This document shows, in pieces, positions 1 through 21,124 of a stretch of DNA of 64,000 bases. Location of the stretch: contig NIVC01001830.1 in NCBI GenBank assembly GCA_002269645.1, positions 1-64,000 of the forward strand, written 5' to 3'. The stretch comes from Macrostomum lignano (Eukaryota). The stretch's first letter is position 1. Each line of letters begins with the position of its first letter. The notes below the pieces were generated by a model, which ran no database searches, had not been told where the DNA came from, and saw only the letters and a list, made by a program, of their open reading frames with translations. Both the position numbers and the translations under genes were made by a program.

Positions 1-234
1 AGCTGTAAAATCCACGTCGTTGTTTGCAACTGTGAAAATTCATTGCCAAAAGCAGAAGGCAAAATACATTGTTCTCAGAGATCTGGCCAAATAAATACAG
101 AGAGAGATTATATATTTACTCCAAAAAGCAGTTGATGATTATAGATTAACTCTTGAAGAGGTTCAAGCAGCTACTGCAATTTATTCAGAATACAGAGAGA
201 AAAGAGATCAATTGTTAGACGCCGGTTGCGCCTG
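1..234 (+). CDS. 3' end of an unknown ORF in element A (77 codons, open from the window edge)
   Basis: Frame 1 is open from base 1 to TGA at 232-234 (SCKIHVVVCNC...LLDAGCA*); no recognisable motif. Confidence 0.35.
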
Positions 235-453
235 AAGAAGTTAACCATTCGGAAGTCGTTGATAAAATTCTCAAAGAGAGTAGACTTGGTCATTCAGCGA
301 AGGAAAAAATTAAAAAGGAACTGCTGAGAAAGATCTGAGAGAAAAATTGGGTCTAGCCGATAAGCCAAAAGAGTACTCGGCAACACTCAATCTTCAATCA
401 AATGCTCCAAGTGCACCCCCTACTTAGTATTTTGTATAATTTTTTTTCTAAAA

Positions 454-3400: not shown

Positions 3401-3507
3401 AAAATAAAATATATATTCGTGAGATTATGAAACAAACAATGAGTCCGTTAGATGATAAAAGATATTATTTGGATCCTATCAGATCTATTCCTCATCAGCC
3501 AATGTAA
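454..3507 (+). pseudogene. polB: Protein-primed family B DNA polymerase with embedded EndoVII-like Zn/HNH segment; several frameshifts
   Basis: ORF pieces 785-1273, 1439-1768, 1881-2615, 2392-2736, 2720-3127 and a tail to TAA 3505-3507. Motifs YLDKNNLYG, KLLNNSFYGK, YSDCDS, KKVIGKLKDE, DDKR. EndoVII-like CFLC...HNHYNGKYRGAACQSCN. Start at TAAAAATG 449-456. Confidence 0.92.
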
Positions 3508-3528
3508 TCTCATTGATAACATCTTCGT

Positions 3529-5972
3529 TTATTTTTTTACACAGTAAAACAGAACATTTCTAGTTTCTTGCTGTTTACCATCTATCCTACGCCTATATCT
3601 ATCCTTATAATACTTACAATAGTCATTGTGATTCTTGAAGAAATCTGTTATGTATTGTTGTTGGAATTCACGTTTCTCACGTTGGGCTAGAGTCCTATAG
3701 TATTCACTCTCTGTTGCGGCAGTGTAAATTTCTCTAATAAGCAAAAATGTTTTTTCCTCAGTTTCTAAAAATTCATAATTCTCTTCAAAGAAGTGAGCAA
3801 ACCAATTACAATTCTGTATGAATTCATTAGTGTTTTCAATTACGCTTTTCGATCGATATATTTCACCCTTTGTTTGCTTGAAAATTTCTAGTAGGTGTTT
3901 CATCTCAGCAAACTTATATTTATTCTTAAACTCCTCGGTCTTAAGATATGAATCGGCTTTATAAATGTGTTTCGCATGATCAATGATGTCGGTATCTGCT
4001 GTATATTTACATGGGTAATTAATATTTATAATTCGTCTTTTTTCTGCATCTCCAATATTTTGTCTAAAGTCAGGCTTGTTATTACATTCGACTATCAGAG
4101 TTGTGTAAAACGACATTACACTGGCTTGAATATAAATTTCTAGCTTGGATAACCCCACCACCAGTTAGTAATTTTATTGATGCATTGTTCAAGACACCAC
4201 TTACTTCTTGACTGATAACCAACCTCTTTTTATTAATTTGTGCTAGGGCTGGTTGTGGCCTGTCTATTCTTATTGGTAAATTCAAAACATCAGGACTCAG
4301 TGGTGCTGCATAATCAGACCCTAGAGTTCTAAGAAGTAGGTTGTCCTCAACTCCCTTGCCATTTCCACCAGCGCCATCAAACATTATAAAGTTTTCAACA
4401 TTCTTACCCATTAGAGCTGTGGCTATAACGGATTCCCAACTTTTTCTATTTTCTGGATCGGGATGAATTTGGTTATGCAGATTAACAATGAAGCCATAGT
4501 CGTAATCACTCACTCCAAGTACATCCGAGTAATTATATCCCACCGATTTAGTAACGTAATCGTCATATCTATACTCGCGAAACTCACCTGTAAGGAGGTC
4601 GTATACTCCATCGTTAAACCCTAGCAAATTCCATTTCATGTCGAATTCAATTTCATTGTTAGTAAACCTCTCTTTGAACAAAGTAGTTACCTGTTTGAGT
4701 TTGTTGGCTCCTTGTATTGAATTTATATTTATTGTACTCTGTAGTTTCTTTTCAAGTGCTTTTAACTTCTCTTTATCATCAGCCGCCTTCTTAATTGCAA
4801 TTTCGAGTCTAGTCTTTCGGTGGTTTAACTCACTGCTAACAAGTTCTGATATTTTAAGAAATATGTCATTTATACTACTTAGTTCTCTCCACTTATCATC
4901 ATCAAAATAGTAAATACCATCGCTATTGTAAATTATATTATTCTTCTTATATTCATAAACAAAGTTGGTTATGTTAACGTCAGTGAAATTATCATCAAGA
5001 AACTCAATCCTACCATAATAATCATATTTGCTTTTCCATTCCTTATATTTACAATAATTTTCTTCACTAGCCCATTTCTTCAACGTACCGATAGTAAGTC
5101 TGTCCTGTGCATCAGCAGAGCTGGTATTGGTGCTATTCCACACATTTTTACATGCCTCGGAATCGAACTTATCATAATTTACTTTTGACCAATCAGTGAA
5201 TACTTTGTACATTTCATCACCACTGTCTATGTCGCGGAGTATAAGTGCACCTTGTACCAAGAATCATAGTCTTGGTTTTTGTGTTGTATTATACTTAACA
5301 ACTTTGAAGCTCCTTCACAACTGGGTGATGGAACGGTGCTTTTTAGTGCCTGTTTATCTTGTTCTTGGATTTCATTTTTATCCGTGGCTTTATTAATCTA
5401 TTTATCTCATCAAGAATTACATCTGCATGTCTATTAAGTCGCACTTTGTACGTTTGTATTCCTATTTCACCATCCACATAATAGAAACCTGGTGGAGCAA
5501 ATACTAAGCGGAATATCAAAACCCACACTTTGTTGAATCGTTACTTTCAATCCATCTACTTTGTTAAAGTAAAAGTGGTGTCCCTTGTTTGTCTGAACAA
5601 CCCAATCACAATGAGTCATACACAGTTCATTCAACTCAGGGCATAGGTCAGCATTATCAATATCGATTACGGTTATATTTGAGTTTCTAGTATCTATCCA
5701 AATCATGTTGTCTACCTGGTCGAAATGGTGGGAGGTTGAATTCCTATCTGCTTTGTTGGCATTCCTGACGGTATTTTTTTCTTTGTTTTACTATTCCATG
5801 TTACACTGCAACTTCCGAATTAAAATTAAGTTCTCATAGAGATTAATTAGTTTATCGTACGATTTTGTTTGTTTTAAATTTGTCAATCTTGGTGGTGGGC
5901 ATCATGTTTTGAAGCGGATCCTGTACGATCACAGGAGAGAAACTTGAATCGTTTTGATTTTTTCTTTCCATT
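3529..5972 (-). pseudogene. Prim-Pol/PriCT-2/D5-like superfamily 3 primase-helicase, frameshifted
   Basis: Pieces 5467-5706 (VIDID...TNKGHHFYF), 4082-5260 (FTDWS, LTIGTLKKWA, FNDGVYDL, Walker A GAGGNGKG) and 3529-4161 (PDF...AEKRRIININYP). Putative start TAAAATG at 5972. Confidence 0.85.
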
Positions 5973-6802
5973 TTATTTAAAATAAATTTAACAATATAAT
6001 TCATCAGTTTCAATGTACTTCTCAAGGGTTATGGGGAGTTTGAAAATGTTCAACTTAAGCATGACGAAAAATTCATCATTCCTTATGTGCTGTCTCGAAA
6101 TCAATGCCCATTTATCAACATGTGCAAGATATACTCTGAATGAATACAAATAAGGGGGCATTTACAATCGGTGTGTTTTAATATTTCTGCTTTATATTCA
6201 TCGTAAGCTTTATCAATTTCTTCAATTAGTCGAGCCTTTCGAGTGGTGTTTTTATTTGAGAGAAATTTATAATAGAATCATAATACTTTTGTGGCAGTGC
6301 ATTTCGTACATTTGGGTTAGCTTCCATTTTTCTATGAAAAATTTAACATTTTTGCTTTCTTTTGGGCAAATTTCTATAGATAATCCAACTTTAGCATTTT
6401 CTGTGTATCATTATACTTTGTCTTCTTAATTTTTCGCTACTTTTGCGCCTACTTCATTGGCAGCTTTTTTATTATTGACTGTCTTTGCGATTCCGGCTGC
6501 ACCTGCCTGTCTTATGAGAGGTAGATTGTCTTTTAGTAAGTTGGAATGGTGCTTCTAGTATCAAAATACCTCTCCATTGTACTCTAGGGCTCACCTATTG
6601 TATACTCTCTTAGCTTGCGTGGATCTGTAACGGGGCACATTTTTGTCTATTTTTAGAAACAGAAAAATAAACACAGGAACAGAAAGACTTTCAGACACCA
6701 AAGGCCAAACTCCATTGGGCTAAATGTGGCCTGCTCAAAGCGGTGATATATTTGTTTAAATTATTACCTTAATAAATGTTTGATATCAAATCATGTTGAT
6801 AA

Positions 6803-7378
6803 TTATGGCGCATTAGATGGTTCTATATCAGCGCGGCATGTTGGGCACCTAACCATGTTGCCCTCTTGAATTCCAGTGCGATAACATATTTCACAAACTA
6901 CAGCTCGACAACATGCCATGGTAACGTTTGGTGGCCGTGGTTCGTGTTGGCAGATTGGACAAAGCCCTTGATTATTCCCCGGCTGAGCTGGATGGTTCTG
7001 TACTTGAGTCGGGTTATCCTCTGGTTGAATATCAGCTAGTTGGTGCTCCATATCTTGGCGATAAGCAACCAAGCGCCTCTCTGCTTCTTGAACGCGACGT
7101 TTTTGAAGATAGTAGTTCTAGGAAAGGGTTTGGTGCGCTCGTATATGATTTTTGTAAACTAAAACCTTATAATGTAAAAACACTTTTTAACTAACCTTTA
7201 GCTGATTAAAGAAGCGCTCTTCATTAGCCAAATTTTGTGGGTTATACTCCAAAAAGATGTTGATGGCAATATCTCTAAACATTGAGTTCCTATGGTGTTG
7301 TCGCAAATTTCGCTCTCGAATTCTAAGAGTTGCTCTAGCGGCAGTAAGCCTCTCGTGCAAATTCGAGAAAGAAGGCAT
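6803..7378 (-). CDS. RING-finger protein (putative E3 ligase); probably one disrupted gene spanning ORFs 7187-7378 and 6803-7072
   Basis: CPIC-x9-CC-x3-CEIC-x11-CPTC in 6803-7072; the upstream helical piece lies in another frame. Confidence 0.65.
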
Positions 7379-7486
7379 TGTAGGAATGATAATTTGTAAG
7401 AAGGTAAAGTTAGTAGAGAAAAATTACTAGACCTTGCCGCTCGTGGCCATTCATTTATATATTTTTATGACAAAACGTCAGACCCC

Positions 7487-7587
7487 GCATTCCATTCAGA
7501 CCAAAACACGAGACCAATTTTTATCTTTTTATTTTTCGAAATTTTCTTCTCGCGTTTTGGTCTCGCGTTTTGGTCTGAATGGAATGC
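7487..7587. repeat. 30-bp inverted repeat with a 41-nt T-rich spacer
   Basis: gcattccattcagaccaaaacacgagacca (7487-7516) versus tggtctcgcgttttggtctgaatggaatgc (7558-7587), one mismatch. Confidence 0.9.
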
Positions 7588-7596
7588 ATGACTCAG

Positions 7597-8074
7597 TGTA
7601 GCAAGAGTATAAGATAAAAAATATAAAACCCCGAATTCCTGTGTTAGTCATCGAGTGAAGTTTGCCTACTTGCTTTGCTATCTTGGTCGGACAATAGCCG
7701 ACCATATTGTTGCGGTGCGAGCTTGCTTCTGTGTAGCAAGAGTAGATGAAAAATATAAAACCCCGAATTCCTGTGTTAGTCATCGAGTGAAGTTTGCCTA
7801 CTTGCTTTACTATCTTGGTCGGACAATAGCCGACCATATTGTTGCGGTGCGAGCTTGCTTCTGTGTAGCAAGAGTATAAGATAAAAAATATACAACCCCG
7901 AATTCCTGCGTTACTCATTGAGTAAAGTTTGCCTACTTGCTTTGCTACGGTGGTTGGACAATAGCCGACCATATTATTGCTCTGCGAGATTGCTTCTGTG
8001 TGTAGCAAAAGTAGATGAAAAATATACAACCCCGAATTCCTGCGTTAGTCACTGAGTGAAGTTTGCCTACTTGC
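7597..8074. repeat. About 3.5 tandem copies of a 132-135-bp unit containing two hairpins
   Basis: The atata(a/c)aaccccgaattcc motif recurs at 7621, 7753, 7888 and 8022. Internal stems GGTCGG/CCGACC and CTTGCT/AGCAAG. Confidence 0.9.
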
Positions 8075-8170
8075 CAGCTTCCTAAGATAGTAATTTTTTG
8101 TTTATTGACCCCGTTGGGAGTTTTTGTACTTATGTTGTGTTTTTAATGGTGACTATGGTATTATGTCTAA

Positions 8171-9549
8171 TTATGTGACAATTATGTCTAAAATCGGATA
8201 AAGTTGAAAGCCTGAAACAATAAGAACAGTTGATCCTTCAGTGGCTGAATTAATATGCACTCTATAACCGGAGAATTTTTCGGTGGAAGCTACTTCAAAA
8301 TATTTCATCACTCCAGGAACTAAACCAGCATTTTCGGTAGAAAAAATATTCCTAAAGTCTCTCTTGTTATTGCTCCCTTTCAGAATAAAACTTTTTGGTT
8401 GATTTTTTATAATTTCACTACCTACTGCTTTGGTTCCTTTCAATCCGAATTTCCAAATTTGAATAGATTCAGGAAGTTGTACTTCAATGTAAGAATTGGG
8501 TTCATTCCTCGATGCCCATTCTGAATTAGATACTATATAACCCCAATTATCTGACGTTTCAAATGCTCCTGATGACGCTACATTGAAACCCCTTTCTCTA
8601 TAGTTTTGACGTGTTGCTAGTGAGGGAATATATCCTGTATAAGATTTGAAACCTAGTCCCCGCCTTAGTCGCAGCTCCACTGATTCAAGTGCATTGTCTA
8701 CGTATAGCTTTGGTACAGCTTGAAGTCTATCTATAGGCCACACTAAATCATTAACCACTGTTTGTCTCTCAAGTAATTCAACTTTTGTAAGCTTTACGGA
8801 ACCAGAAAAATTAAGAGAATAATGGAAATAATATGAGGGTTTGGGTATTTTTTTCCTAAGATGTGCATTGCCCTTCGTAGTTCAATGGGTGCACTTTGTT
8901 CAACAGGTGTCCAGTTTGTTCCATTTAGGCTCACACTAACAGACCAACCAGGCCACACCTCTCCTTCCAACTTTATCTCTACAACTTTCCTAGCTCTTTT
9001 CAAAAATTGAAATCGTATCCACTTGTCTGAGTCATCTGCACTGCTCCATTCTGAAGCCGGGTTTGAATCTGCAACATGATATGCTGCTGAAGAGTTATGA
9101 GAAGCGGTCACTTTCATGTCAGGATGGGAAGCGTTTGAAGTCAGTAATGAAAGAATATTGACTAATTTCGAACTCTCTGTACCTCCCGCAGTACCTTGCC
9201 TTTCTGCTAACAAAGTGTCAATCTCAGTTTTAGAATACATCTTAGTGTCAATTTCGGTTTTAGAATACATCTTAGTGTCAGTTTCGGTTTTTGTGTAGAC
9301 ATTGTTTACGCGCCCATGAGCATCGTCAATTAATTGTAGCATGGTGATATTCATTGCGTCACTATCTTCCTTTGAATAAGAGTCTGAAACATTTCTCTTT
9401 GCTAACAATAAATTATCTATTTCCTCTCTCTTATATCCTTCATTTTCATTGATGTATCGATCATCAGCTAACGCTATTGTTATTCCAGGTGCTATATCAT
9501 TTGAATTTGACGAGTAACCAAATTGATTAGCAGTATTCTTGTAACTCAT
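8171..9549 (-). CDS. Fibre/receptor-binding protein with YxKxExD shaft repeats and two F5/8-type C (discoidin)-like domains; one frameshift near 8.8 kb
   Basis: 8794-9549 has YTKTETDTKMYSKTEIDTKMYSKTEID repeats, then W-rich ...EWSS...WIRFQF...SLNGTNW. 8171-8758 has a second such domain (EWAS...YIEVQLP...PKSFILKGSN). Confidence 0.65.
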
Positions 9550-9977
9550 TTTAATTGCTGCAAAATTTCATTATAGCTATCTCCTTTATCGATTCGATGT
9601 AAAAAGTACAGCGACATTTGACCACAAAATTTCTTATCTAAAGTTTGAATTTGTTCTTCCATGTCTCCACATATTCTATTCTTTGTGTGATTAAACTTTT
9701 CCATAATTTCCAGTGTGGGCGGTAGTGCATAGGAATCAAAAAAATAAACCTTATCATGAGCTGAAAAGATAGCTGAATGATGTATACCCCGTTCTTTCGA
9801 AGTGTGAATATTTGTCATAAAGTAACCATACTGTGGTAAATCAACAATTTCATCTCTCATGGCATAGCGAAATGGTTTTAACTTGAGATATTTTGCCCAA
9901 TTTATCAGATCAATATTAGTCGTAGTGTCAGTCCCAAACTTTTGTTTAAATGCATTCCATGTCTCAGCTTCGCTCAT
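9546..9977 (-). CDS. Adenain-like cysteine protease (virion maturation)
   Basis: His (GIHH), Asp (YFFDSY), Gln (QIQ) and Cys (FCG) in Polinton/adenain order. ATG in TAAAAATG at 9977; the stop overlaps the next ATG (ATGA). Confidence 0.88.
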   Translation of the reverse strand: MSEAETWNAFKQKFGTDTTTNIDLINWAKYLKLKPFRYAMRDEIVDLPQYGYFMTNIHTSKERGIHHSAIFSAHDKVYFFDSYALPPTLEIMEKFNHTKNRICGDMEEQIQTLDKKFCGQMSLYFLHRIDKGDSYNEILQQLK

Positions 9978-9986
9978 TTTTAACAC

Positions 9987-10778
9987 TCATATTTGTCGTA
10001 CGTGTAGATTTATAAATATTTCCTCGCCATCAAAGTCGTATAGAACACCAGACTCATCTTCGATGACAAAGTCGAATGTGCTCAACATGTTTGTAGTTAG
10101 TGGTAGGTACACAGGATTTGCAGGCTCTTGAATAATTTTACTTCCCATTGGGACAGAGAACGATGGAATTGAAAGAAGTATTTGCTTATCAATTAAATGA
10201 TTTCCATTGGCTGGATCAGTGATAAAACCCCCTTTGATATTGAGACAACGAACCATGATCGCACTTCTAGCTCCGTCTATCCGAGCTGGATTTGGAGCTC
10301 TCTCAAATGGTTTCAAATACACTTCCGAATTGAATCCCAACAGTCTTCTAAAGTTATTGGAATGTGCATCCCTGAAATCAACTTGATACTCTGTGGCTAA
10401 CCGTAACTCAACCCTACGCGTGTCTAGGCTTGCACTGAAAACAATAGCCCCCTCTTTCCAATCATTTGCAGCTGTTAGCAATCTTTGAATCTCGCTTGAC
10501 AGACTTTTAACTTCCCAAGATCCTGCTTGAATCTTTATTTTCTTCCATGTTCTACCACTATCCCTCGAGTATCGCAACTCATTATTGCCTCCTTCAATAT
10601 TGTTAATAGCATCAAAGACTGCAAACTTTTTTATACCAGCTTCGTATTCTCGATCTTCATACAAATTTATCGGAGTGCCTAGAGTTTGTCGAAATGGGTT
10701 TTTAATTGAAAAGAAGTCAAATGTGCGTTGAAACTTTTTACTCAAGAGGATGTTGACTTTTTCTATTTCTTTTTCCAT
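9987..10778 (-). CDS. Minor capsid protein (penton), element A
   Basis: 263 aa; AVFDAINNI..NNELRY, LLGF, IIQEPANPVYLPL, DESGVLYDFDGEEIFINLHV resemble Polinton mCP motifs; homologous to 22440-23303. Confidence 0.8.
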   Translation of the reverse strand: MEKEIEKVNILLSKKFQRTFDFFSIKNPFRQTLGTPINLYEDREYEAGIKKFAVFDAINNIEGGNNELRYSRDSGRTWKKIKIQAGSWEVKSLSSEIQRLLTAANDWKEGAIVFSASLDTRRVELRLATEYQVDFRDAHSNNFRRLLGFNSEVYLKPFERAPNPARIDGARSAIMVRCLNIKGGFITDPANGNHLIDKQILLSIPSFSVPMGSKIIQEPANPVYLPLTTNMLSTFDFVIEDESGVLYDFDGEEIFINLHVRQI

Positions 10779-10780
10779 TT

Positions 10781-11512
10781 TTAAGCAAGTAATTCTACTA
10801 GCTCTTTATCAACATTGTTATGTCCCTCTGCTTTTGCGGCTAGTAATGTCAACACTCTTTCACTGAGTCCAGATCCCGGTTTTACTCGATATCCTGGTGG
10901 ATTATCTTTCAATATCCTTACTGCTTGCTTATAATTCCCACTTGATTTGGCCGCTGGATTTTTACAGTGTTCAATGAGGTTAACATAATCCTGCAATGTT
11001 TGCATCTTGAATTGCTTCAGCTCTTCACCATTTTCAGTTACTTTAGGCATTTTGAACAACTCTTCAAGATCTTCAGAAAATGGCATTCGGAATTCGTTGA
11101 CAATGATGTCCCGACCTTGTTCATGGAATTCAACCTCTATTACAGATGATCCAAATATATATCCAGCATCAGTTTTTTGAATCCGTATACTAGGCGCTGG
11201 TCTTTGAGTTATTGGAATCTTTCCAATTTCTTCAATTATTTTGTCAAATACTTCCAGAGGTTCAAATCGTCCTTTTGGTGTACTTAATTGCGGAACTGGA
11301 ACTTTTTGATTCTGAAGTTTATCAACAAGGTTGGCATTGAAATCAATAAATTCATCAAGCTTTTCTGTGACAGGTTTTTGAGCTAATGGAGCCACTCTTG
11401 CATATAAACTCTCTTCTCCAATTTTCAAATAGCGTTGAGCATCATTTCTGGATTTGTACGTTTCTCGCTGCTTTGCTAAATTAATGAGTTCTCTTATATA
11501 TTCATTAGTCAT
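10781..11512 (-). CDS. Conserved Polinton virion-associated protein (PY-like), element A
   Basis: 243 aa; C-terminal GSGLSERVLTLLAAKAEGHNN...ELVELL pattern; a similar protein spans 19880-21093. Confidence 0.55.
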   Translation of the reverse strand: MTNEYIRELINLAKQRETYKSRNDAQRYLKIGEESLYARVAPLAQKPVTEKLDEFIDFNANLVDKLQNQKVPVPQLSTPKGRFEPLEVFDKIIEEIGKIPITQRPAPSIRIQKTDAGYIFGSSVIEVEFHEQGRDIIVNEFRMPFSEDLEELFKMPKVTENGEELKQFKMQTLQDYVNLIEHCKNPAAKSSGNYKQAVRILKDNPPGYRVKPGSGLSERVLTLLAAKAEGHNNVDKELVELLA

Positions 11513-11514
11513 TT

Positions 11515-12288
11515 TTACAATGGGATTTTAGTTAGAACATCCTTATACAAATCTTGCTCATCCTCATCAGCTCTTGTATTTATATAGATATAGCCATACT
11601 TCTTTTTCCAAGCCTCTCTACATTTAGCCTTGAATATAGCGGGTTCATAATTCGTTTCTACATTTCTAGCAATGTGATTTAAGTTTGTATCTTTTTGTTT
11701 AAAGATTATGTAACATGTCGTATTCTCCCTGACAGTATTGCGATCTAGTTTGGTAAAATTTTGAGCTAGATAAAAACCACAACAGTTTCCATGCCTGCCT
11801 CTCTGAAACAGACTTTCCTGAAATTTTTGATTAGCCTCTCCCAAAACATCGTCCAATATCACACATGTCTTTAGTCCATTATGAAAAATTTCTTCATTTG
11901 GAGTATGGGAAAGAGTGACAGGAATTTTCTCTATTACTTCTGAATTTTCTGATGTGCTTTGCACTCGACCAGGGTTGGCTGCCTCTCGACAAATATGTCT
12001 AATATCTTCAGTAGATGCATCCTCACTCACCTGGTAGACATGATAGAGTGAGTTGATAAGAGAAGGTGGGAGACCATTTTCAAAGCCATATTTTAGAAAC
12101 TGATACTCTGGATCCATTTGAGATGCTCTGGGAACATATAAAACTAACTCATTAAAGTCAACTAGTTTTTCAGGACTTGTAAGAATATGGAATAGTAAAT
12201 ATGTTTTACCCGTATTTGTAGCGCCGATAATACAACATAAAAGAGGATTAGGGAAAATAGGATCATGCTGAAATTTTACTTTGGGCAT
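11515..12288 (-). CDS. A32/FtsK-like genome-packaging ATPase, element A
   Basis: Walker A GATNTGKT, Walker B VILDD, RGRH motif, YLAQ, C-terminal YGYIYIN. Confidence 0.9.
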   Translation of the reverse strand: MPKVKFQHDPIFPNPLLCCIIGATNTGKTYLLFHILTSPEKLVDFNELVLYVPRASQMDPEYQFLKYGFENGLPPSLINSLYHVYQVSEDASTEDIRHICREAANPGRVQSTSENSEVIEKIPVTLSHTPNEEIFHNGLKTCVILDDVLGEANQKFQESLFQRGRHGNCCGFYLAQNFTKLDRNTVRENTTCYIIFKQKDTNLNHIARNVETNYEPAIFKAKCREAWKKKYGYIYINTRADEDEQDLYKDVLTKIPL

Positions 12289-12309
12289 TTAAAAAAAGAA
12301 AAAATGACC

Positions 12310-13673
12310 TTATTCGACGCGGGTCATTTGATATTCACTGGTAACTTTTATTACATTCTTTGTTTGTTCAAGAATTAGTGCAAAAGCAGTCAGCTCAACA
12401 TTTGTTGACTTCTTGATAAATAATTGAATATTCACTCCACTCTTGACCAGAAACTCATCTTGAGCTGTTAGATCAAAGCAAAAGATTGGATAGATGGTTA
12501 GAAAGTCTTGTTTATTGAATGGAGGAGTTACACCGAAACGGCTGCAGATGTCTTCGTACATTTCATACGCTCTGTGAATGTCTTGAGCTACTGGATCAAT
12601 TTCAACATAATCATTCGGATACATCACCTGATTTAATCTGACTTGAAGCTGGGTTATTTTCACTGCATTTGCTCCAGTTTTGTAAGACACATACTTGTGA
12701 TCATTAACTATATATGATGGGTTGTTTACGTCATATTTGAAAGCTACAAAGATTGCAAGTGGCATATTGGAGATGTTGGCTATGTTCCATGTATATGGAC
12801 TTCCTTGAATGAGTTGTGGTGGAACCGTTACCCTCTCTGGAAATGATACTGTAATGTCCTTGTTGAGTGATTTTAGAAAAGCTGCTTCAGCACTGGGTGA
12901 CAAAGTAATAGCAGGGATCCAAATCTCAAAGCTATTAATAGTTAACTTAGCTTCCGTCCCGGCAGCTCCAAAGAAAATTTCAGCATCGTTAGTCTTTCTT
13001 GTCCATGTGAATTTATATTTAATTCCTTTGCTAATCTTCTGCCAATCAAGGAACCCAATGAGAGGTGTTAATGATAGTTTGATTGTTCCACCTCTGTTTG
13101 GAGCATTAGTGACATTGTTATAATTTTCAAGCCTCCTAATGTATCCAGTATTCGAATCCTTCTTATTGAGTCTATTTTTCATAGCGATTGCTGCAGTTCT
13201 CACAGCTTCAGCATCTGCGTTGTTTGCTAGAGGTATATCAGAAACAGTCCCAGCATCTCCAGTGTCTGGAATCCATCCGTATGCTTCTCCAACTTCATTC
13301 ATTAATTTTGAGTACATTACGGACTTTAAGATTGTGTCATACTCTCCAGGATCATTATAGACTTTCTTTGTTCCTCCAATGTCAACTATGAGTTGAGAGA
13401 AAAGTCTCATAGGCCAATTATGTTCTAGAGTAATGTTCGTATTCAAGTCGGTGTTATCTCGTTGTGTTATTGAGTATTTTATACAACCGAATGCCTCTGA
13501 CATGAGAATGTATGACTCTGTTGAATTGACTTCATGAACTATTTGACCTCCTGCAACATTGAGATTATTAGTGCTACCTGGAGTTGAGAAATCTTAATAT
13601 AGTCTTCTTTCTTTTTGAAAAAGCTAAAAGTTTTGTCCTCATATATGCTCAGTATATCCTTTTTGTTCTCCAT
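12310..13673 (-). CDS. Major capsid protein (double jelly-roll), element A; one frameshift near 13590
   Basis: 397-aa ORF plus an out-of-frame N-terminus starting at TAAAAATG 13673. Motifs LFSQLIVDIGG, FVAF, QVRLNQVMYP, YPIFCFDL; homologous to 21125-22411. Confidence 0.8.
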
Positions 13674-13693
13674 TTTTATAAGAGAAATTTCAA

Positions 13694-14146
13694 CTAAGCT
13701 TCATGAGGTCTAAGAATTATCCCATTACCCTGTTTCTCCTTTTCAACTTTAAAAGTCTTTAGCAGCCACTTGACTGCTTCGCTGGGTACTTGTTCGACTC
13801 TTTTAGCCGCATCAACTAATACTCCACTCCCTTGAGCCTTTTTCAACTCTTCTAGTTTTTGCCGTTCAATGCTTTCTATTGTCTTATTATGTTTAGCATT
13901 GTTGGCTGTATTAACACTTTTTGCAATCATTGTACCAACTCCTGAGGCTGCTCCGATACCACCCAAAATTGCTGGTAGTAAGCCTAATAGAGGAATTATT
14001 CCACCTTCATGTTCTTTCTGTTTCTCTTGCAATTCTCGAATCTTCTCTTTAGAAAGATATTGCTTTTGCTTATTTACAGTAACATATCTTGGTTTTCCCT
14101 CTCGAACATATCGATTGAGTCTTGCTTCAGTGTTTTTCTCGCTCAT
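13694..14146 (-). CDS. Putative core protein with an adenovirus pX/mu-like hydrophobic segment
   Basis: GGIIPLLGLLPAILGGIGAASG after a basic N-terminus; GxG-hydrophobic motifs QGSGV and QGNGI. Confidence 0.5.
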   Translation of the reverse strand: MSEKNTEARLNRYVREGKPRYVTVNKQKQYLSKEKIRELQEKQKEHEGGIIPLLGLLPAILGGIGAASGVGTMIAKSVNTANNAKHNKTIESIERQKLEELKKAQGSGVLVDAAKRVEQVPSEAVKWLLKTFKVEKEKQGNGIILRPHEA

Positions 14147-14154
14147 TTTTAAGG

Positions 14155-14577
14155 TCAGAATTTCTTCAAACCATTGCCTTGTCTCAAAGACACTTGAGAC
14201 TGTTCTGCTGTTCCTAGAGCCTTTTTAACAATATCTTGAATAGCCTTATTTGATTGAGAAGCTATCTGTTGCTCTTCTTCCATTCTTTTCTTTGCTTCTT
14301 TATCTCTACGTTTCTTTTTAATATATTCCAGTTCCTCACCTGCTTTAGACATGTCACTGTATGATTTCTTCGCATCGAATATGTTCTTCGCTGTGGTAGC
14401 TGTTTTACCTATTGCATCAGCTCCACTCACAATTTTACTTCCATGATTTGATAAAAAGTTTGTGACACCACTGATCATATCACCAATTCCTTCACCCTCT
14501 TTATCAGCTAGTAGTTGTGAATCAGACGTTTCAATCTGACCTTTCGCCCGTTTGCAGTTTGTTCGATAGGCGCTCAT
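14155..14577 (-). CDS. Putative core/membrane-lytic protein (pVI-like amphipathic helix), element A
   Basis: Likely start TAAAAATG at 14577 (MSAYRT). GEG-IGDMISGVTNFLS amphipathic stretch and terminal QGNGLKKF; similar to 19486-19863. Confidence 0.45.
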   Translation of the reverse strand: MSAYRTNCKRAKGQIETSDSQLLADKEGEGIGDMISGVTNFLSNHGSKIVSGADAIGKTATTAKNIFDAKKSYSDMSKAGEELEYIKKKRRDKEAKKRMEEEQQIASQSNKAIQDIVKKALGTAEQSQVSLRQGNGLKKF

Positions 14578-16769
14578 TTTTAGTTGAAAAATTTGCTGGT
14601 AGAAGCTGGGATTTGTAAAATGATCCAATGATTTCTTCTCCATTCTCATCCTCAATAATGTAGGTTATGGGATTGGAGTAAACTATTTTCTTTATCCTAA
14701 ACACTTCTGAAATTTTCCAATATCCTCTTCGACCCTTTTCAAAGTGCTCCTTATATCTATAGATATGAACTTTGTCACCTACTTTGAAGTTTGGTTTCTC
14801 ATTTGAATACTCGAAAGTTGGCTTTGGTACTCGCTCAGGATGTTTAGATGCTTCTGAAGGAGTTATCAGAATCTCAGAATGGATTGTGTTGTTGTATTTT
14901 TCAACAATAGCTGGCAATGTGTGGAGCCACTTCTGATTACCCTGTAGATCAAATTCAAACCAGAGTTTATTTGTGAGAGTACGATTGAACCTCTCAATCA
15001 TTGCATTCTTGGACTCGCCATAAATTGAAAACATCTTGTTAATATATTCACCCCTTTCATCCTTCTTTCTAATGTTGTCTTTTGAAAACGAGTATAGCTT
15101 GTACATATGCTGATTATAAAACTCCTTGCCTTCATCTACACAAAGTCTCTCTGATCGTCTTCCTGATTCCTTAAATACTTTTTGGAAAGCTTCTGCAACT
15201 TCCGCTCCCGTCTTTGTTTTCAAAGGAACTGCCCAGGCGTAACGTGTAAAACCATCTATGATAGTTAGAGCATATTTGTAACCTCTTTCGGGCGGTAGGA
15301 TAATGATATCTGCATGCCAAATTGTGTCTTTTGCATAGTGAATCATTTTTCTAAATACTCTTGGCTTTCGATATTCTTTATGCAATTTTACTGCATCTTC
15401 ATAGCTAAGACCCTTACCATAAATTGTTAGACAGTCAATACAATTGTTGGGGTTGTGAGTATGAATGCCTAATCCAAACCGAACTTTAGCCTTGATAATA
15501 CGCTTTACTAGATTTCGAATGAGTCTCTCTTTCACAGACAAGTCACTGGTTGGAATAGCATCTAAATCAGCTATCATTTTTTCATCAGCTATATGCTTCT
15601 TTGCTAGAGCTTCCTCTGGATTTGAAGAAGTGTTTTCAGCATCTCTATAGTTTTTGTCATGATAGTAAGCAGTCCAATCGATTGGGTTAATTGGTAGACT
15701 GTCATACCGAGGCCGGTCTGTAATTGGATTGAGTCTCTTGTCTAAATTTGTACCCGGCAGTTGTTCCTCAATCTTTCGAAAGAGGCTGGACTTTATCTTA
15801 AGGCTTCATCAGGATTGACCAGATCCTTCAGCCCCACCCCCATTAAGTCTCTGAACCTTCTCCATATCCTTGTCAACTTCGTTCGGACTTAGGAGCTTGG
15901 CTGCGGATTTCCACCATGTCCTCAAGCTTGTTACCATCGAACCATAGGTTCGCGGACGAAGTCCGATTGGGAACAGGAATTACCTGTGTTCCTTCAGAAG
16001 ATTTCTCAACTGAAGTGGTACTTGAGGCTGTTATTGACGTACTAGAATCGGACGGAGTTCCCGCAATTTGAAGGTGTCGCCAATCACTAAGCACTTGTTT
16101 AATGTTGGTTATAATGTTTTTGTATTGATCACCATAAAGAAATTTCAATGCAAATTCTCCTGTTATAAGGGCGATTCCATTGTCTAGTAAAATATTCTTA
16201 GGTTCCTTTGTAGTTTTATTGATGCATACATAATACAACTGATAGATGGGATAAGAATTTTTATAGTCTAATAGTTTCTGATAATTCCTTTCACGACTTG
16301 ATGAACTGTCCGTGTTATCAGAAGATTTAAGCTCTAATGCAATCTTTCGCTCAACGTGAACCAGGTCAATCTTTTTTACCTTCTCGAATCCAAAATAATT
16401 TTCTGCTAATATTTCATATAGTCTGCCTAGTCTCATTTGAATAACTTTAATCTTGTGTGAAATTATTAACTCTTCTTGGAAAAGATCATGAAGAATTTGA
16501 TCATGCCCAACCTTATCATCAATTGGTTTCAGAAGAATTTCTCGAATTGTTTGCTCCATTTTTACTATAGAAACTTTAACAAGTGCTTATTTGATGACTA
16601 GCAAGGACATTGACTTCCTCACTCAGGCCACTACGTAACCTGCAAAAGAATACCCTGGAATATGAAGTTCTCCTGGGTATTTTCCAGTGGCGAAGATGGG
16701 TGGTAGTTTTGTTATAGCTGACTGAATATCTAAAGCATTTCCTAGAAATAATGGTTTACTGAAGGCCAT
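14531..16769 (-). CDS. PLA2-integrase fusion, spliced: join(16769..16638, 15757..14531), 452 aa
   Basis: Exon 1 is 44 codons ending GELHIPGYSFAG. Exon 2 starts PGTNLDKRL...PINPIDWTAYYHD (parvovirus-type PLA2) and stays in frame into the rve integrase (WHAD, CVDEGKEF, AMIERFNRTL; C-terminal PITYIIED..GEEIIGSFY). Confidence 0.9.
15758..16637 (-). ncRNA. Group I self-splicing intron, subgroup IC1 (880 nt)
   Basis: 5' exon ends in U with a U-G pair in P1 (CAGGU/GCCUG); terminal G at 15758. P AAAUUGCGGGAA 16069-16058, Q AAUCCGCAGC 15909-15900, R GUUCAGAGACUUAA 15856-15843, S AAGAUAAAGUCC 15799-15788. P2-P9 pairings are present and removal restores the frame. Confidence 0.96.
15873..16559 (-). CDS. 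Intron-encoded PD-(D/E)xK restriction-endonuclease-like protein (Eco47II-like; putative homing endonuclease), 228 aa
   Basis: QMRLGRLYE...KIDL...IALELKSSDNTDSSSS...YQKL pattern. Starts in the P2.1 loop at TAAAAATG. Family assignment is from remembered motifs, not a search. Confidence 0.7.
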   Translation of the reverse strand: MEQTIREILLKPIDDKVGHDQILHDLFQEELIISHKIKVIQMRLGRLYEILAENYFGFEKVKKIDLVHVERKIALELKSSDNTDSSSSRERNYQKLLDYKNSYPIYQLYYVCINKTTKEPKNILLDNGIALITGEFALKFLYGDQYKNIITNIKQVLSDWRHLQIAGTPSDSSTSITASSTTSVEKSSEGTQVIPVPNRTSSANLWFDGNKLEDMVEIRSQAPKSERS

Positions 16770-17200
16770 TTTATATATATAAAATTTACTATCGTTGAAT
16801 TGGATGACACTTTCATATTGTATATACCTGAAATTGCATTAAATTGACCCGAGGATCCAACCTTTCTCATGGTTTTAGAGCTGGAATCGTGAAAATTGCA
16901 CTTTTTAAAAAAAAATAGAAAATCACAAAAAATCGCTGTTTTCAGACCATTTTCACCTGTTTTTAGTCATTTTTCAGTTATTTTTAGTGATTTTCAAAAT
17001 GAGTGAGGGCATGAGGGCGAGGGCACCCCCCCTTTTTAAAAGTATAAAAAATCCGGAAATTCTGTCTTCTGAGAAATATACCACAGGCCAATGCCCCCCA
17101 CATGCCCTCACCCTCAACACCCTCAGTCACAGATATATGTATATTTATATATTTTTTTATATTTATCACACACACACACTTGAATCCATGACCACCTGGT

Positions 17201-17299
17201 AGTAGTAGTATGTTATAAGGGGCTGAGTCATCCAGCGAGCTGGCGCGTAATGCGCCCGAGCGATAAGTGTGGCGCAGCCCCTTATAACATACTACTACT
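17201..17299. repeat. 99-bp fold-back with 25-bp perfect arms starting (AGT)3; probable element terminus or mini-element
   Basis: agtagtagtatgttataaggggctg (17201-17225) and cagccccttataacatactactact (17275-17299). Confidence 0.9.
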
Positions 17300-17565
17300 G
17301 ATCCAGATAGAACAGACACAGATCCTAGAATCATATTGCTGTAGTCGAAAAATTTACAGTGGCTTTCATAGCGTTTAATTTTCTTTGTGTTGTGGAAAAT
17401 ATTTTTTTCAAGATCATCTCGCATTTTTTGAATCTCTACCAGTCGAAACTGTTGAGAGTTACAAGTAATGACGGGGTAGAGTTTTTGTTGCTCATATTGG
17501 GGTGCACTAGGTGCACTAGGTGTTGTGGGAGCATTCGGATCATAAAGAGAATTTTGAGCATCCAT
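17300..17565 (-). pseudogene. Truncated Polinton membrane-type protein (N-terminal ~88 aa)
   Basis: MDAQNSLYD...QQFRLVEIQKMRDDLEK...KRY...MILGSVSVLSG is protein-like up to 17300, then runs into the fold-back and low-complexity DNA. Confidence 0.55.
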
Positions 17566-17676
17566 TTTTTTAAAGAAATTTTTAAAAAAATAATCGGCAA
17601 CTAGTTGGTGGTGGTTAGATTTGTTTTACGGTTGATTGCTTCGTCTGCAGTGACGGCAACAGGTCTCTGAATCTGC

Positions 17677-18420
17677 CTATTCATTATCTGTGAGCTCCAT
17701 TCTACGCATGATCTCAAACAAGTCGGTTGGATCACTTGTTTCCCTTGTGGTCTGTGGTGCCTCTTCAGCGTCAATGTTTTTGAGATTATGCAAGCGTTCA
17801 AGACGACCGATTCTTCTCACCGATTTCTGCCATTCGGTAAAAACTAAATCTACAAAGACTTTAATTGCAGTAATTCTTACTTTGATTTGATCATGCAACG
17901 CTGTTGACTGAGTCATGAACTCTTCTAAATTCCTCACTTTACATGTGTTGGTTGCGACGTTTTCTTTAATTCTATCATGCAATGCTGTTGACTGGTTCAT
18001 GAACTCTTCTAAATTCCTCACTTTAACTGTGTTTGTGAAAACTCCTTCTTCAAGAATGCGCATCCGCCTATCAATGGAGTTTCTCAGAAGATTAATTGTC
18101 GATGCTAAATTTGTTCTTAAACCGTTGATTTGCGAGACTGCCGAAGTTATTTCTGACCTAAGTTCATTAGTTGCGTTTAACAACGGCACATAAAGCTTAT
18201 CACTTTCAAACTTCTGCCTAGCTACTTTAAGCCTGAGATCTTCCATGTTTATTTGCAACTGGTGCATGGAGCGCTCCAGGGCTTTCAGTCTGTTTTTATT
18301 CAGTTTGATCTCTGGGATCTTTTCGTCGCTGTTGATATATCGCCTGTCAAGTATGGATATTTGAGCTGATGTAAGAGCGCTGTTGCCAGAAATGGATTCA
18401 CCTGCAAAGTTTATTGACAT
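17677..18420 (-). CDS. Coiled-coil fibre-like protein, element B
   Basis: N-terminus MSINFAGES...DRRYIN parallels MSYKN..QFGYS...DDRYIN of the element A fibre; heptad-rich with an internal duplication (KVRNLEEFMxQSTALHD twice). Confidence 0.5.
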   Translation of the reverse strand: MSINFAGESISGNSALTSAQISILDRRYINSDEKIPEIKLNKNRLKALERSMHQLQINMEDLRLKVARQKFESDKLYVPLLNATNELRSEITSAVSQINGLRTNLASTINLLRNSIDRRMRILEEGVFTNTVKVRNLEEFMNQSTALHDRIKENVATNTCKVRNLEEFMTQSTALHDQIKVRITAIKVFVDLVFTEWQKSVRRIGRLERLHNLKNIDAEEAPQTTRETSDPTDLFEIMRRMELTDNE

Positions 18421-18436
18421 CTTTTAATAGCAAATT

Positions 18437-19237
18437 TTAAATTACAGTTCTTTTTTCTTTGCTGATAATCACAAACTGGTAAGGCTGATTCCACTTGTCA
18501 TAGCAAAGATTAACGAATTCCTCTTGTGAAATCTTTCTGCTTGAGTTTTTTGTTGGATTTATGAAATAGGCAGGCGCAATGACCTCATTGTAAAATCTTT
18601 TTAACCTGTCCTGTGGAATGGTTGGAAACAGGAGAATCAGATTGCAGTTCCCACGAATTGTTTTGTTCGGGAGCTCGAACCAGTTCTGTGCAATGTAAAT
18701 TACATTACAATTGTTATGTCGTCCTCTTGTAAAATAGTTTTCTATCTGCTTCTGTGGGCCTGTCATACAATCATCAAAGACGATCAAATGCTTTCTCCCC
18801 TTTTCTAGCTCATCTGGTTGGGGTAGAAGTTTGGTCTTTGGATCAGCCTGTGGATCTCCATAGGTGAACACTTTAATGTTCTGCCATTTTTCATTGTCTT
18901 TGAGGTGCTTTGCATATTCGGCAGCTACAATTTCAGGGTTACTGGGAAGGCTCATTTGGTTATTAAAACATGCAATAATGTCCTCTTTGTTCAGCTTGTT
19001 TTGAAGCCCTGCAATCAGCATTCTATACTCATCTTGATACAGTGTGGGAGAGTAGATGTGCAGAGTGTCATAGTCGATAAAGCCAGGTCTAAGAAGCATG
19101 TTAAAGACTCTGAATGTTTTACCTGAACCTGATGAACCAACAACAATGCATCTGAAGTGACTCGGGATTGACTCATGATGAGAAAACTTAATCTGATTAC
19201 GTGTCCAGTGAGGATTGAAGTCGTTTGAAAAGTCCAT
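18437..19237 (-). CDS. A32/FtsK-like packaging ATPase, element B
   Basis: Walker A GSSGSGKT, Walker B IVFDD, RGRH, YIAQ, IRGNCN. Confidence 0.9.
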   Translation of the reverse strand: MDFSNDFNPHWTRNQIKFSHHESIPSHFRCIVVGSSGSGKTFRVFNMLLRPGFIDYDTLHIYSPTLYQDEYRMLIAGLQNKLNKEDIIACFNNQMSLPSNPEIVAAEYAKHLKDNEKWQNIKVFTYGDPQADPKTKLLPQPDELEKGRKHLIVFDDCMTGPQKQIENYFTRGRHNNCNVIYIAQNWFELPNKTIRGNCNLILLFPTIPQDRLKRFYNEVIAPAYFINPTKNSSRKISQEEFVNLCYDKWNQPYQFVIISKEKRTVI

Positions 19238-19276
19238 TTTTTCTATGATGAAAAAAATTTAAATAATAAATAATGT

Positions 19277-19445
19277 AGATGTGTCATTTCGGGACTTAGA
19301 TGTGTCATTTTGGGACTTAGATGTGTCATTTTGGGACTTGGATGTGTTATTTTGGGACTTAGATGTGTCATTTTGGGACTTAGATGTGTCATTTTGGGAC
19401 TTAAATGTGTCATTTTGGTACTTAATTGTGTCATTTTGGGACTAG
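19277..19445. repeat. 21-bp minisatellite, about 8 copies
   Basis: gatgtgtcattttgggactta repeated. Confidence 0.9.
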
Positions 19446-19485
19446 TCTTGTACCTTTACATTTCTTGTACCCTCGGAAAGTACCT

Positions 19486-19863
19486 TTAGTCAAATTTGAA
19501 ACCACTTCCTTTTTTAATGCTAGCTCTCATCTTCTCATAGACTGCAGGGTCCACACTGTCTGGATTTGGGGCCAGCGGGGCCAGCGGTTGAATCTCTTGT
19601 TTAGGTGTTACAGTATCCTTTATCTTTTTGGCTGCTGTGGCTACACTGCCAGCCGCTTCGGCAACGTTCTTGATGTTCTCTTTGTTCTCTCCAATGACCT
19701 TAAAAATCTTAGCCCCCTGAGCGATCAAATCAGCAAGGCCATTCCCAGAGCGTTCTTTTCTTGGATAGTGGCCTGCAGGGAAAAGTCCAGATCCGCGTTT
19801 AATGAGATTAAGTTCCTCTTTGTCATAGTATTTGTCAATGTCTTTTTCGAAAATAATTGGCAT
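19486..19863 (-). CDS. Putative core/membrane-lytic protein (pVI-like), element B
   Basis: RGSGL, SGNG-LADLIAQGAKIFKVI, AGSVATAAKKIKD, KGSGFKFD; layout parallels 14155-14577. Confidence 0.45.
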   Translation of the reverse strand: MPIIFEKDIDKYYDKEELNLIKRGSGLFPAGHYPRKERSGNGLADLIAQGAKIFKVIGENKENIKNVAEAAGSVATAAKKIKDTVTPKQEIQPLAPLAPNPDSVDPAVYEKMRASIKKGSGFKFD

Positions 19864-19879
19864 CTTTTTAAATAGAAAT

Positions 19880-21093
19880 TTATTTTTTGTTAAACCGTGA
19901 AAGCAGAAGCTCTCTCGCCCTCTTATCGATGTATTTTCTCTCAAGCATTTTATTGAGGATGTGAACGAACTCTTTTCTATTCTCATCTTTCATTCCGGTC
20001 TTTGCTGCTCCTAGAAGAACCGCTACTCGCTTGTAGATTTCAGCTATTCCTTTTCCAGTTGAAGGCGGTTGGTCTTGAGGTTGTGGAGTTGGTTGGGCTT
20101 GTGGCTGCTGGGGAGGTGATGCAAAAGACTGCTCACTTTCAGAGATGGAACTGTCATGTGGTGCCTGTCTCTGTTGAGGTGTGAAAACTCTTTGCTTGAT
20201 TCTGTTCATTCGATCTGGGGAGTGTTGTTCTAAGTGTTGCCAGTCTGTTGGGTTTTGTTTCTTATATTCAGCTACTTTCAAAGGGTCTAACTGCTCGAGA
20301 TGACTGAGTACTTGTTCTTCTGTGGAATGTTGCTGCTGTTGTGGCGGTCGTTGTTGTTGTTGTGGTTGCTGTTGCTGTTGTTCTAGATATTTCATCTGAT
20401 CAATGACTTCCCCTGATCTGGCAAACCAAACCATTGTTTAAAGTGCTTGTACTTTTTGAAATTAGTCAGGTTGACACCGCCATCGTACATGTGTTTCAGA
20501 ACTTCTGGGACCTTTAGTATTTCTATATCTCTAGCAAGAGAAAAAATCACTAGATCTCTGTAGTTCTTTAGCTGTTTGTCCGAGATTCTCTCTTGGTTCT
20601 TGGTCATAAAATTCAGTAAGGTTTCTGTGAAAGGAATGCTCTTAGTTTCCGAGCCTTTGACAACAGAAATATGTTTCTTATTTATGTCGATATAATATTC
20701 CACTGGTTCATTATAAATGTTTCTTCTCCACATACTTATTCCAAATACATATTTCCCATCATGTTCTACACGCTCTACTGGTCCAAAAATGTTATCTGTC
20801 ACTTTTAGTTGCTGTTGTGGTTGTGATTGTTGTGGTTGCGGCTGTATCTGTGGTGCTTCTGGAATTTTGCCCAAAACCTTTTGCACTTGGGTTTCCTGTA
20901 TGTCGTCGATAGTTTCTTTGACCTGATCAATATTTTTCTTAGCTTCTCCATACCCGGGTTTATGAAACTCTGTGGCTGCTTGGACAAACTCATTGTAGGA
21001 TTGTTGCTCCTTATTTATTAGCTTGGTAACTCTCTTTTCTGCCTGCGCCAGCTTTTCTAGTTCAGATATCTGCTGTGTACTTTTTCGCTTCAT
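19880..21093 (-). CDS. PY-like Polinton protein, element B; frameshift near 20400 and a Gln-rich linker
   Basis: 20392-21093 plus 19880-20434; C-terminal GKGIAEIYKRVAVLLGAAKTG...EFVHIL matches the C-terminal pattern of 10781-11512. Confidence 0.5.
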
Positions 21094-21124
21094 TTCTTAT
21101 TTTATTTTATTTTTAGTTAAAAAA

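Follow-up and report, generated by a model that had tools for sequence, protein, structure and literature searches.

The 64,000-nt stretch of Macrostomum lignano DNA analyzed here (the window; GenBank assembly GCA_002269645.1, contig NIVC01001830.1, positions 1 to 64,000) begins within a Polinton/adintovirus-like element, in which a gene for a PLA2 domain fused to an rve integrase domain is interrupted by 880 nt of intervening sequence (Table 1). By its covariance score, covariation, P1 and P7 features, terminal G, and precise interruption of the gene, the insert is a group I intron, and it contains an open reading frame (ORF) of its own.

TABLE 1 Features of the interrupted gene, its intron, and the host element
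Feature	Positions	Strand	Evidence or remark
Group I intron, 880 nt, terminal G	15758..16637	-	RF00028, core covariation, P1/P2 pairing
P1 helix: exon CAGGU with intron GCCUG, U-G at the 5' splice site, 2- to 3-bp extension	16624..16642	-	5 pairs invariant in 15/15
P2 hairpin	16601..16622	-	both-side changes in 4/7 pairs
P2.1: basal stem and 12-bp stem (16589-16578/16099-16088), loop of ~480 nt with nuclease ORF	16079..16602	-	
Catalytic core: P3, P4-P5-P6 with P5abc (A-rich bulge, GAAA loop), CCUAAG/UAUGG receptor, P7 guanosine-binding site, P8	15788..16076	-	RF00028, covariation
P9.0, P9 (GAAA loop), terminal G; without P9.1/P9.2	15758..15787	-	
Intron ORF, 228 aa; residues 1-160 predicted Eco47II-like PD-(D/E)xK nuclease, last 68 codons through ribozyme core	15873..16559	-	
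Exon 1 of PLA2-integrase gene, 44 codons, ends at Gly of PLA2 xGPGT loop motif	16638..16769	-	intron-less allele L249, uninterrupted homolog P0216
Exon 2: rest of PLA2 domain and rve integrase, 408 codons	14531..15757	-	
Host Polinton/adintovirus-like element	1..26566	.	left end runs off contig; host flank from 26567

A covariance search with the Rfam model RF00028, which the original prediction for this locus had proposed as a check, matched positions 15767 to 16150 on the minus strand with 88.9 bits (E = 2.2e-21), well over the gathering score of 50, and this intron is the sole Rfam match within the window. The intron coordinates and junction motifs are as that prediction had given them, and every helix it had named (P1, P2, P2.1, P3, P4, P5abc, P6/P6a, P7, P8, P9.0, and P9), together with the terminal G, is present in the sequence; the two strands of the 12-bp P2.1 stem are perfectly complementary. 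The 11 core sequences compared are a subset of the copies and were drawn from two families in the genome and from a metagenome contig. In them, 98.0% of the cells pair, and 19 of 63 pairs are changed on both sides, a level reached by none of 500 shuffles; slid-partner controls pair at 39 to 51%. In P7, four of six pairs are altered on both sides, and the G-C guanosine-binding pair after the bulge is present in all 11 cores. Pairing of P1 and P2 is 96% in 15 sequences, each of which has the U-G pair of P1 (the rows themselves having been found with a P1 pattern). Because the 11 and 15 rows form about three lineages, the cell counts overstate the number of independent events. Single-strand folding gave a weak signal (z = -1.9), which is not used as proof.

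The intron had been assigned to subgroup IC1. Tetrahymena-type IC1 introns of nuclear rDNA have P2/P2.1, a P5abc extension with an A-rich bulge and a GAAA loop, and an 11-nt receptor in P6a/b; P5abc occurs in IB introns too and hence is not diagnostic of IC1 alone. The window intron has P2.1, P5abc with the A-rich bulge, a GAAA L5b loop, and the 11-nt receptor in common with the Tetrahymena type but lies in a protein gene and is without P9.1/P9.2 and P13, exon 2 following P9 after only 8 nt. Since P9.1/P9.2 are missing and the model scored was RF00028 rather than a subgroup model, the intron is not filed as IC1, and this part of the prediction is not established. An optional 30-nt element in P5abc (window positions 15930 to 15960, minus strand; locus L245) is present in some copies of both intron families of this genome (families A and B, see below) and missing in others, which suggests exchange between the families. 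The P6b loop of locus L244 is expanded into a tandem array of units of about 22 nt, and one related insert exists in L070.

The ends of the intron are fixed exactly because natural intron-less alleles and uninterrupted proteins continue through the site. Intron-less alleles, for which the original prediction had suggested a search, were found in both host-gene families (L247, L248, L249, and L251) and run on through GPGT; the uninterrupted database protein P0216 runs through the intron position, and a continuous xGPxT motif is present in 30 of 71 protein homologs. Removal of the intron restores the 452-codon frame that had been predicted, with 44 codons in exon 1 (ending YSFAG) and 408 in exon 2 (starting PGT). 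In unspliced RNA an in-frame stop is met five codons into the intron, within the P1 region. Exon 2 matches PF00665 (rve; E = 5.9e-10) and PF08398 (parvovirus-like PLA2; E = 0.0012, which alone is below the cut-off), and uninterrupted fusions of 440 to 470 aa like the one at positions 14531 to 16769 exist in other assemblies. Three of six comparisons of exon 2 show no nonsynonymous change, and a fourth gives a nonsynonymous-to-synonymous rate ratio (dN/dS) of 0.10; the interrupted gene is therefore under selection.

The host of the element is an animal, since intron copies share contigs with genes of rhodopsin-family G-protein-coupled receptors (GPCRs). The assembly of 764 Mb has 147 scored rhodopsin-family GPCR matches, and five contigs (C10, C67, C506, C528, and C939) bear both such genes and intron copies; the GPCR on C67, the one checked, is an aminergic-type receptor. 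Thus, the intron-bearing Polinton is integrated in animal chromosomes, which supports the predicted animal-integrated Polinton with a group I intron in its PLA2 gene. As many GPCRs appear two or three times at near-equal scores, the assembly keeps haplotype duplicates, by which the intron copy counts are probably inflated two- to three-fold.

Two families of the intron were found in this genome. Family A, whose introns bear the ORF, has 43 BLAST matches and 28 RF00028 matches; the genome-wide RF00028 search, in which 28 of 29,353 candidates were scored, missed family B, which was recovered with a P1 pattern that has 152 matches in the genome versus 11 in a control. Seven of eight P1-pattern loci fetched are ORF-less introns of 299 to 333 nt (RF00028, 60 to 67 bits), and the remaining one has decayed and contains a tandem expansion. 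Family B closes P2.1 with a short loop and sits at the identical codon position of PLA2-integrase genes that form a second family (e.g., L239:156-458, L240, L241, and L245). The cores of the two families are 81 to 85% alike, whereas their exons are 58 to 68% alike, a gap that core constraint could explain. Among 98 intron 3' ends counted by hand, all 21 of family A end in G, and the 77 of family B divide into 59 with A and 18 with G, the P7 binding pair being standard. The terminal A of family B means either that splicing tolerates an A at this place or that an inactive lineage has been copied widely. A precedent for a terminal A is reported from a bacterial rRNA intron; the excerpts of PMC4990558 do not state one. 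A core-motif pattern with 89 matches was discarded, the majority motif at three fetched loci not being a group I intron. A third PLA2 family (L021 to L050; YCGPL motif) has at least 150 scored matches, and all 30 of its loci read are uninterrupted, with GGG-CCT at the equivalent site.

The intron ORF, which the original prediction had not mentioned, begins in the P2.1 loop and then reads through the core, in the layout of a homing endonuclease gene placed in a peripheral loop; overlap of an ORF with the intron core has been described (PMC3984707). Profile comparison and a predicted model show its product to be an Eco47II-family (PF09553) restriction-fold nuclease. Residues 1 to 160 score 26.3 bits against PF09553 (cut-off, 25.9; whole ORF, 25.2), a family matched by 29 of 32 aligned homologs (E = 0.01), and among these 32 the catalytic residues E76 and K78 are invariant and D65 is conserved in at least 90%, E49 completing the motif. 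The closest fold to the model (pLDDT 94.6) is that of EcoO109I (Z = 9.3, root mean square deviation 3.9, 156 of 160 residues; next match, Z = 6.2), and the list of Foldseek matches includes EcoO109I, which recognizes RGGNCCY, and AvaII, which recognizes GGWCC. No extra DNA-binding domain exists within the 160-aa fold. Known homing endonucleases are not among the fold matches listed, a likeness to them being still possible; the ORF matches none of the homing-endonuclease Pfam families, a PDB sequence search with the nuclease profile gave 0 matches, and so did an NCBIfam search. The ORF is intact (at least 211 aa) in 15 of 28 copies, and dN/dS is 0.22 to 0.34 in four of six within-genome comparisons, so that an intact catalytic motif is found together with purifying selection.

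Distant relatives of the nuclease (25 to 39% identity) are present in viral contigs, many of them labelled as giant-virus assemblies. Where a relative is encoded, the fetched flank includes a C5 methyltransferase gene at 60 of 60 viral loci and at 74 of 80 loci from metagenomes, and a bacterial plasmid relative annotated as Eco47II endonuclease adjoins a cytosine methyltransferase; the intron-borne nuclease is shown to be kin to these methyltransferase-linked viral enzymes. No C5 methyltransferase was found among the 27 window proteins scanned or near the intron-borne relative L142, which lies on an unrelated metagenome contig (Ga0224502_10072777) in a group I intron (80.6 bits) at the same site and whose ORF is 54% identical. 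The nearer relatives of the nuclease thus appear to be carried by introns. In a quick tree with a midpoint root, from which proteins shorter than 125 aa were left out and in which 15 of the 60 viral loci were used, 14 of 64 database proteins, including that of the window, have translated group I core at their C-terminal end. All 14 fall in one 29-row clade (SH-aLRT 85), nested in a 39-row clade (SH-aLRT 96) with 0 methyltransferase-linked rows; the tree gives no direction of transfer. The Eco47II-like nuclease paired with a C5 methyltransferase is widespread in viral contigs (L082 to L141). A single cluster of nuclease relatives comprises 30 members, of which some are truncated. Relatives of the nuclease and of the PLA2-integrase lie on equal-sized contigs (P0159/P0215, P0168/P0235, P0190/P0243, P0200/P0238, and P0194/P0246), hinting at the same intron layout in other assemblies.

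As a source of the intron, microeukaryote rDNA or viruses had been proposed. Nothing points to rDNA; on the viral side, the nuclease points to giant-virus restriction-modification systems. Among viral contigs, the 5' pattern of the intron had 15 loci, with an RF00028 match in 0 of 10 scanned, a P4-P5b pattern had no match, and a PLA2 query found one locus, which is intron-less; blastn against phages gave no match.

The intron lies at GGT|CC, within a Gly-Pro codon pair, and any Gly-Pro pair spells GGNCC. Eco47II homologs have been associated with GGNCC, albeit "without certainty" (PMC10305163). Intron-less pattern matches of PLA2 type number 28, of which 24 have GGC as the Gly codon and 4 retain CAGGT; four further matches share one motif, and the one of them that was fetched is not PLA2. 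Around the site, 5 of 10 bases differ between L249, an intron-less allele of family A, and the window, compared with 7% elsewhere (p = 3e-4, for an interval chosen after looking). The last 29 bases of exon 1 are identical in four divergent intron-bearing copies, as co-conversion would give.

We interpret the insert as a group I intron that is mobile and lives in the PLA2-integrase gene of animal Polintons, with a restriction enzyme recruited as its homing endonuclease, and give this interpretation a probability of about 70%. We are fairly certain that the ribozyme is active in the life cycle of the element; it is likely that the nuclease acts as a homing enzyme, and somewhat less surely its target contains GGNCC at the insertion site. 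The transcribed RNA would fold, bind guanosine at P7, and be cut at the U-G pair of P1, and the exons would then be joined at the terminal G to encode a 452-aa PLA2-integrase, unspliced RNA terminating at the early stop. This two-step guanosine splicing is suggested by the anatomy of the intron and by the selection acting on the gene that it interrupts. The ORF in the P2.1 loop might be translated, most simply, by reinitiation on unspliced RNA after the stop that ends exon 1, a guess prompted by its AAAATG start context, which is common to most genes of the element and to L142. The restriction-derived nuclease would cut intron-less alleles at a GGNCC-core site that the intron splits, and repair from an intron-bearing copy would insert the intron, either during Polinton co-replication or between integrated copies. 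The ORF-less introns at the same site would have lost the nuclease and would persist, possibly helped in trans. Homing at GGNCC is proposed because of the association of Eco47II with GGNCC, the sites of EcoO109I and AvaII, the GGT|CC split, the site changes in intron-less alleles, and the 29 shared exon-1 bases. A more specific scenario, offered tentatively and at somewhat less than even odds, is that a giant-virus type II restriction enzyme was captured by the ribozyme and became a new homing-endonuclease family at Gly-Pro GGNCC, driving the intron through Polintons integrated in animal nuclei, with ORF-less terminal-A dependants that still splice. If this capture is true, ribozymes mature animal nuclear mRNAs and homing acts inside an animal germ line.

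Several observations weigh against mobility and homing as proposed here. (i) The splicing of mRNA that the original prediction had put forward is not established: the exact 880-nt skip was seen in none of the 4 of 24 runs examined, which are all contigs and three of them only guessed to be RNA, a negative that is limited because contigs cannot show absence, and X1 contigs cross both splice sites unspliced. Among the runs that contain the sequence, none is recorded as RNA. Two candidate joints were rejected as splicing evidence. The X3 joint across the intron differs by four letters and matches a genomic intron-less allele (C293 and C1178), and the X9/X19 joint is that of the intron-less ACT-GGC-CCA family, which is also present in a DNA run. 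(ii) Of 256 patterns, none is more depleted in the element than GGNCC, with 12 sites in 23.7 kb and an observed/expected ratio of 0.39 versus 0.57 to 0.72 in controls, which are depleted too; against synonymous shuffles the depletion does not reach significance (190 of 500), and GGNCC avoidance was downgraded to weak evidence after these controls. (iii) A 160-aa enzyme with 5-bp specificity and without a methyltransferase would cut its own element and the host; it should therefore have a longer specificity or confined expression. Surviving GGC-CCN alleles still contain GGNCC, so that plain GGNCC cutting fails to explain their survival and homing needs a longer site; known homing enzymes do read long sites (PMC3943268). 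The intron-less alleles may simply be separate lineages. (iv) In L074/L075, the discordance between intron and exon 2 extends into exon 1 (88%), which therefore indicates recombination near the 3' end and not clean intron-only transfer, and the case for the latter was downgraded; discordant intron and exon distances reflect recombination and are no proof of homing. (v) Compared directly by BLAST, the nuclease and a bacterial protein annotated as Eco47II show weak similarity (28% over 50 aa; E = 1e-4), and dN/dS is 0.9 to 1.0 in the two closest comparisons, which have few changes.

The alternative that deserves most attention, although we regard it as unlikely, keeps the splicing intron but makes the nuclease mainly a weapon or addiction factor of short GGNCC-type specificity against co-infecting or co-resident DNA viruses, the intron spreading by descent and ordinary recombination. 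It would suit the nearest characterized kin, which are restriction enzymes, the small fold without an added DNA-binding domain, the rarity of GGNCC in the element relative to controls, and the recombinant nature of the copies, and phage interference by an intron endonuclease provides a precedent (PMC11620839). The exact position of the intron within GGNCC and the differences of surviving intron-less alleles right at that place speak for homing instead, and a weapon of this kind is difficult to reconcile with the 12 GGNCC sites that the element retains with no methyltransferase among its scanned proteins. A weapon role and homing are not mutually exclusive.

Still less probable is a passenger intron without splicing activity in animal cells, which a virus would have gained in a host other than an animal; intron-bearing copies would then have been amplified with PLA2-integrase that intron-less Polintons provide in trans. 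Such a passenger would account for the failure to see a spliced junction in the four contig-level runs and for the 59 of 77 family B 3' ends that lack a terminal G; possible suppliers are another PLA2 family, with at least 150 uninterrupted genes, and the intron-less relatives, which number about 28, and group I introns do occur in protist Polinton-like viruses (PMC12220804). However, compensatory changes separate families A and B, which both reside in this genome, the interrupted gene is under selection by four of the six exon 2 comparisons, and intron-bearing 5' ends (152, against 11 in the control) outnumber intron-less alleles. That the contig is contamination from a protist, a fungus, or a free virus is already largely refuted, and we consider it very improbable: the contig stops short of the element's left end and a target-site duplication cannot be read, but, besides the GPCR genes on intron-bearing contigs, the flank from 26567 onward matches two other contigs (C1482 and C845) at 98%, and at least half of the sampled words are present in 19 runs from seven studies with one organism code. 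Removal of the insert by the spliceosome through the CAG|GT near its 5' end, where GT lies two bases upstream of the group I cut, is the least credible explanation and can practically be dismissed, as the insert does not end in AG, the nearest upstream AG fails to restore the frame, and the conserved ribozyme core would be left unexplained.

A close published parallel to the intron that we have interpreted as mobile is found in protist Polinton-like viruses (Rhodomonas lacustris, Paulinella micropora, and Desmodesmus armatus), in which RF00028 introns of about 300 to 380 nt likewise interrupt protein genes of integrated elements (PMC12220804). Those introns differ in having protist hosts, a short gene upstream of the capsid gene as their site, no annotated endonuclease, and Rfam calls only, whereas the window intron resides in a PLA2-integrase gene in an animal, contains a nuclease ORF, and has ends fixed by intron-less alleles. 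Among DNA viruses of eukaryotes, an algal giant virus is also known to have a protein gene with a group I intron; this virus, compared by host and kind of gene and not by structure, differs in not being integrated in an animal. Restriction-fold nucleases reside in group I introns in the cases of I-Ssp6803I (PD-(D/E)xK) and I-Bth0305I (EDxHD), but these enzymes of cyanobacteria and phage belong to PD-(D/E)xK groups separate from Eco47II and read long sites (PMC3943268 and PMC3424549), while the window ORF matches PF09553. With Eco47II-family type II restriction-modification systems of bacteria and giant viruses, the intron ORF shares Pfam family, catalytic motif, and predicted fold; the intron-borne clade differs by having no cognate methyltransferase where context was seen (the window and L142), by being shorter, and by its place inside a ribozyme. 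Adintovirus PLA2X genes have a parvovirus-like PLA2 domain in an animal Polinton as well, and the excerpts of the main text of PMC8502044 mention no intron in them; in the window, PLA2 is fused to rve integrase and interrupted.

In line with the original prediction, the full-text literature searched, outside which most subscription journals lie, yielded no account of group I introns in animal Polintons (Tables S11 and S12 of PMC12220804 could hold animal elements). The published introns of protist Polinton-like viruses in that paper had not been mentioned by the prediction. A search of the same scope found no report of an Eco47II-type homing endonuclease. According to reviews, group I introns of nuclear genomes occur in rRNA genes alone, and metazoans are without group I introns save for the mitochondria of basal lineages and putative introns in shark internal transcribed spacers (PMC10964413 and PMC8393795). 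Our analysis places a structurally supported group I intron family with many copies in protein genes of a eumetazoan nuclear genome, where reviews hold such introns to be absent, together with a predicted nuclease of a family that is not listed among homing enzymes. Two questions thereby become accessible to testing: whether nuclear pre-mRNA of animals is a setting in which group I ribozymes can function, and by what route a restriction enzyme with a short site could become a homing enzyme. The natural compact ribozymes, including the terminal-A variants, may be adapted to animal cells. Annotation of Polintons would be affected too, since gene callers truncate these interrupted PLA2-integrase genes (P0215 and P0217).

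The host element encodes a D5 primase-helicase, two double jelly-roll (DJR) capsid proteins, two A32-like ATPases, rve integrase, and PLA2; with rve integrase, DJR capsid, A32 ATPase, and PLA2 all present, it is assigned to the Polinton/adintovirus type. Fragments at 1.4 to 3.1 kb, which we take from their motifs to be a B-family polymerase, had no Pfam polymerase match, and an endonuclease VII-like motif lies in this region (1439 to 1768). The two A32-like ATPase and two DJR capsid genes (11515 to 13503 and 18437 to 22411) lie in one element, and the right arm (22.9 to 23.9 kb) best matches 40 scored Polinton ends, mostly not on family A intron contigs; the element is possibly a chimera of two Polinton families or a set of nested elements. 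A small RING-finger gene is located at 6803 to 7051, a 132-bp repeat lies between the primase and the structural genes (7596 to 8074), and an 82-bp tandem array of 33.6 copies (23774 to 26524) is situated just within the right end of the element.

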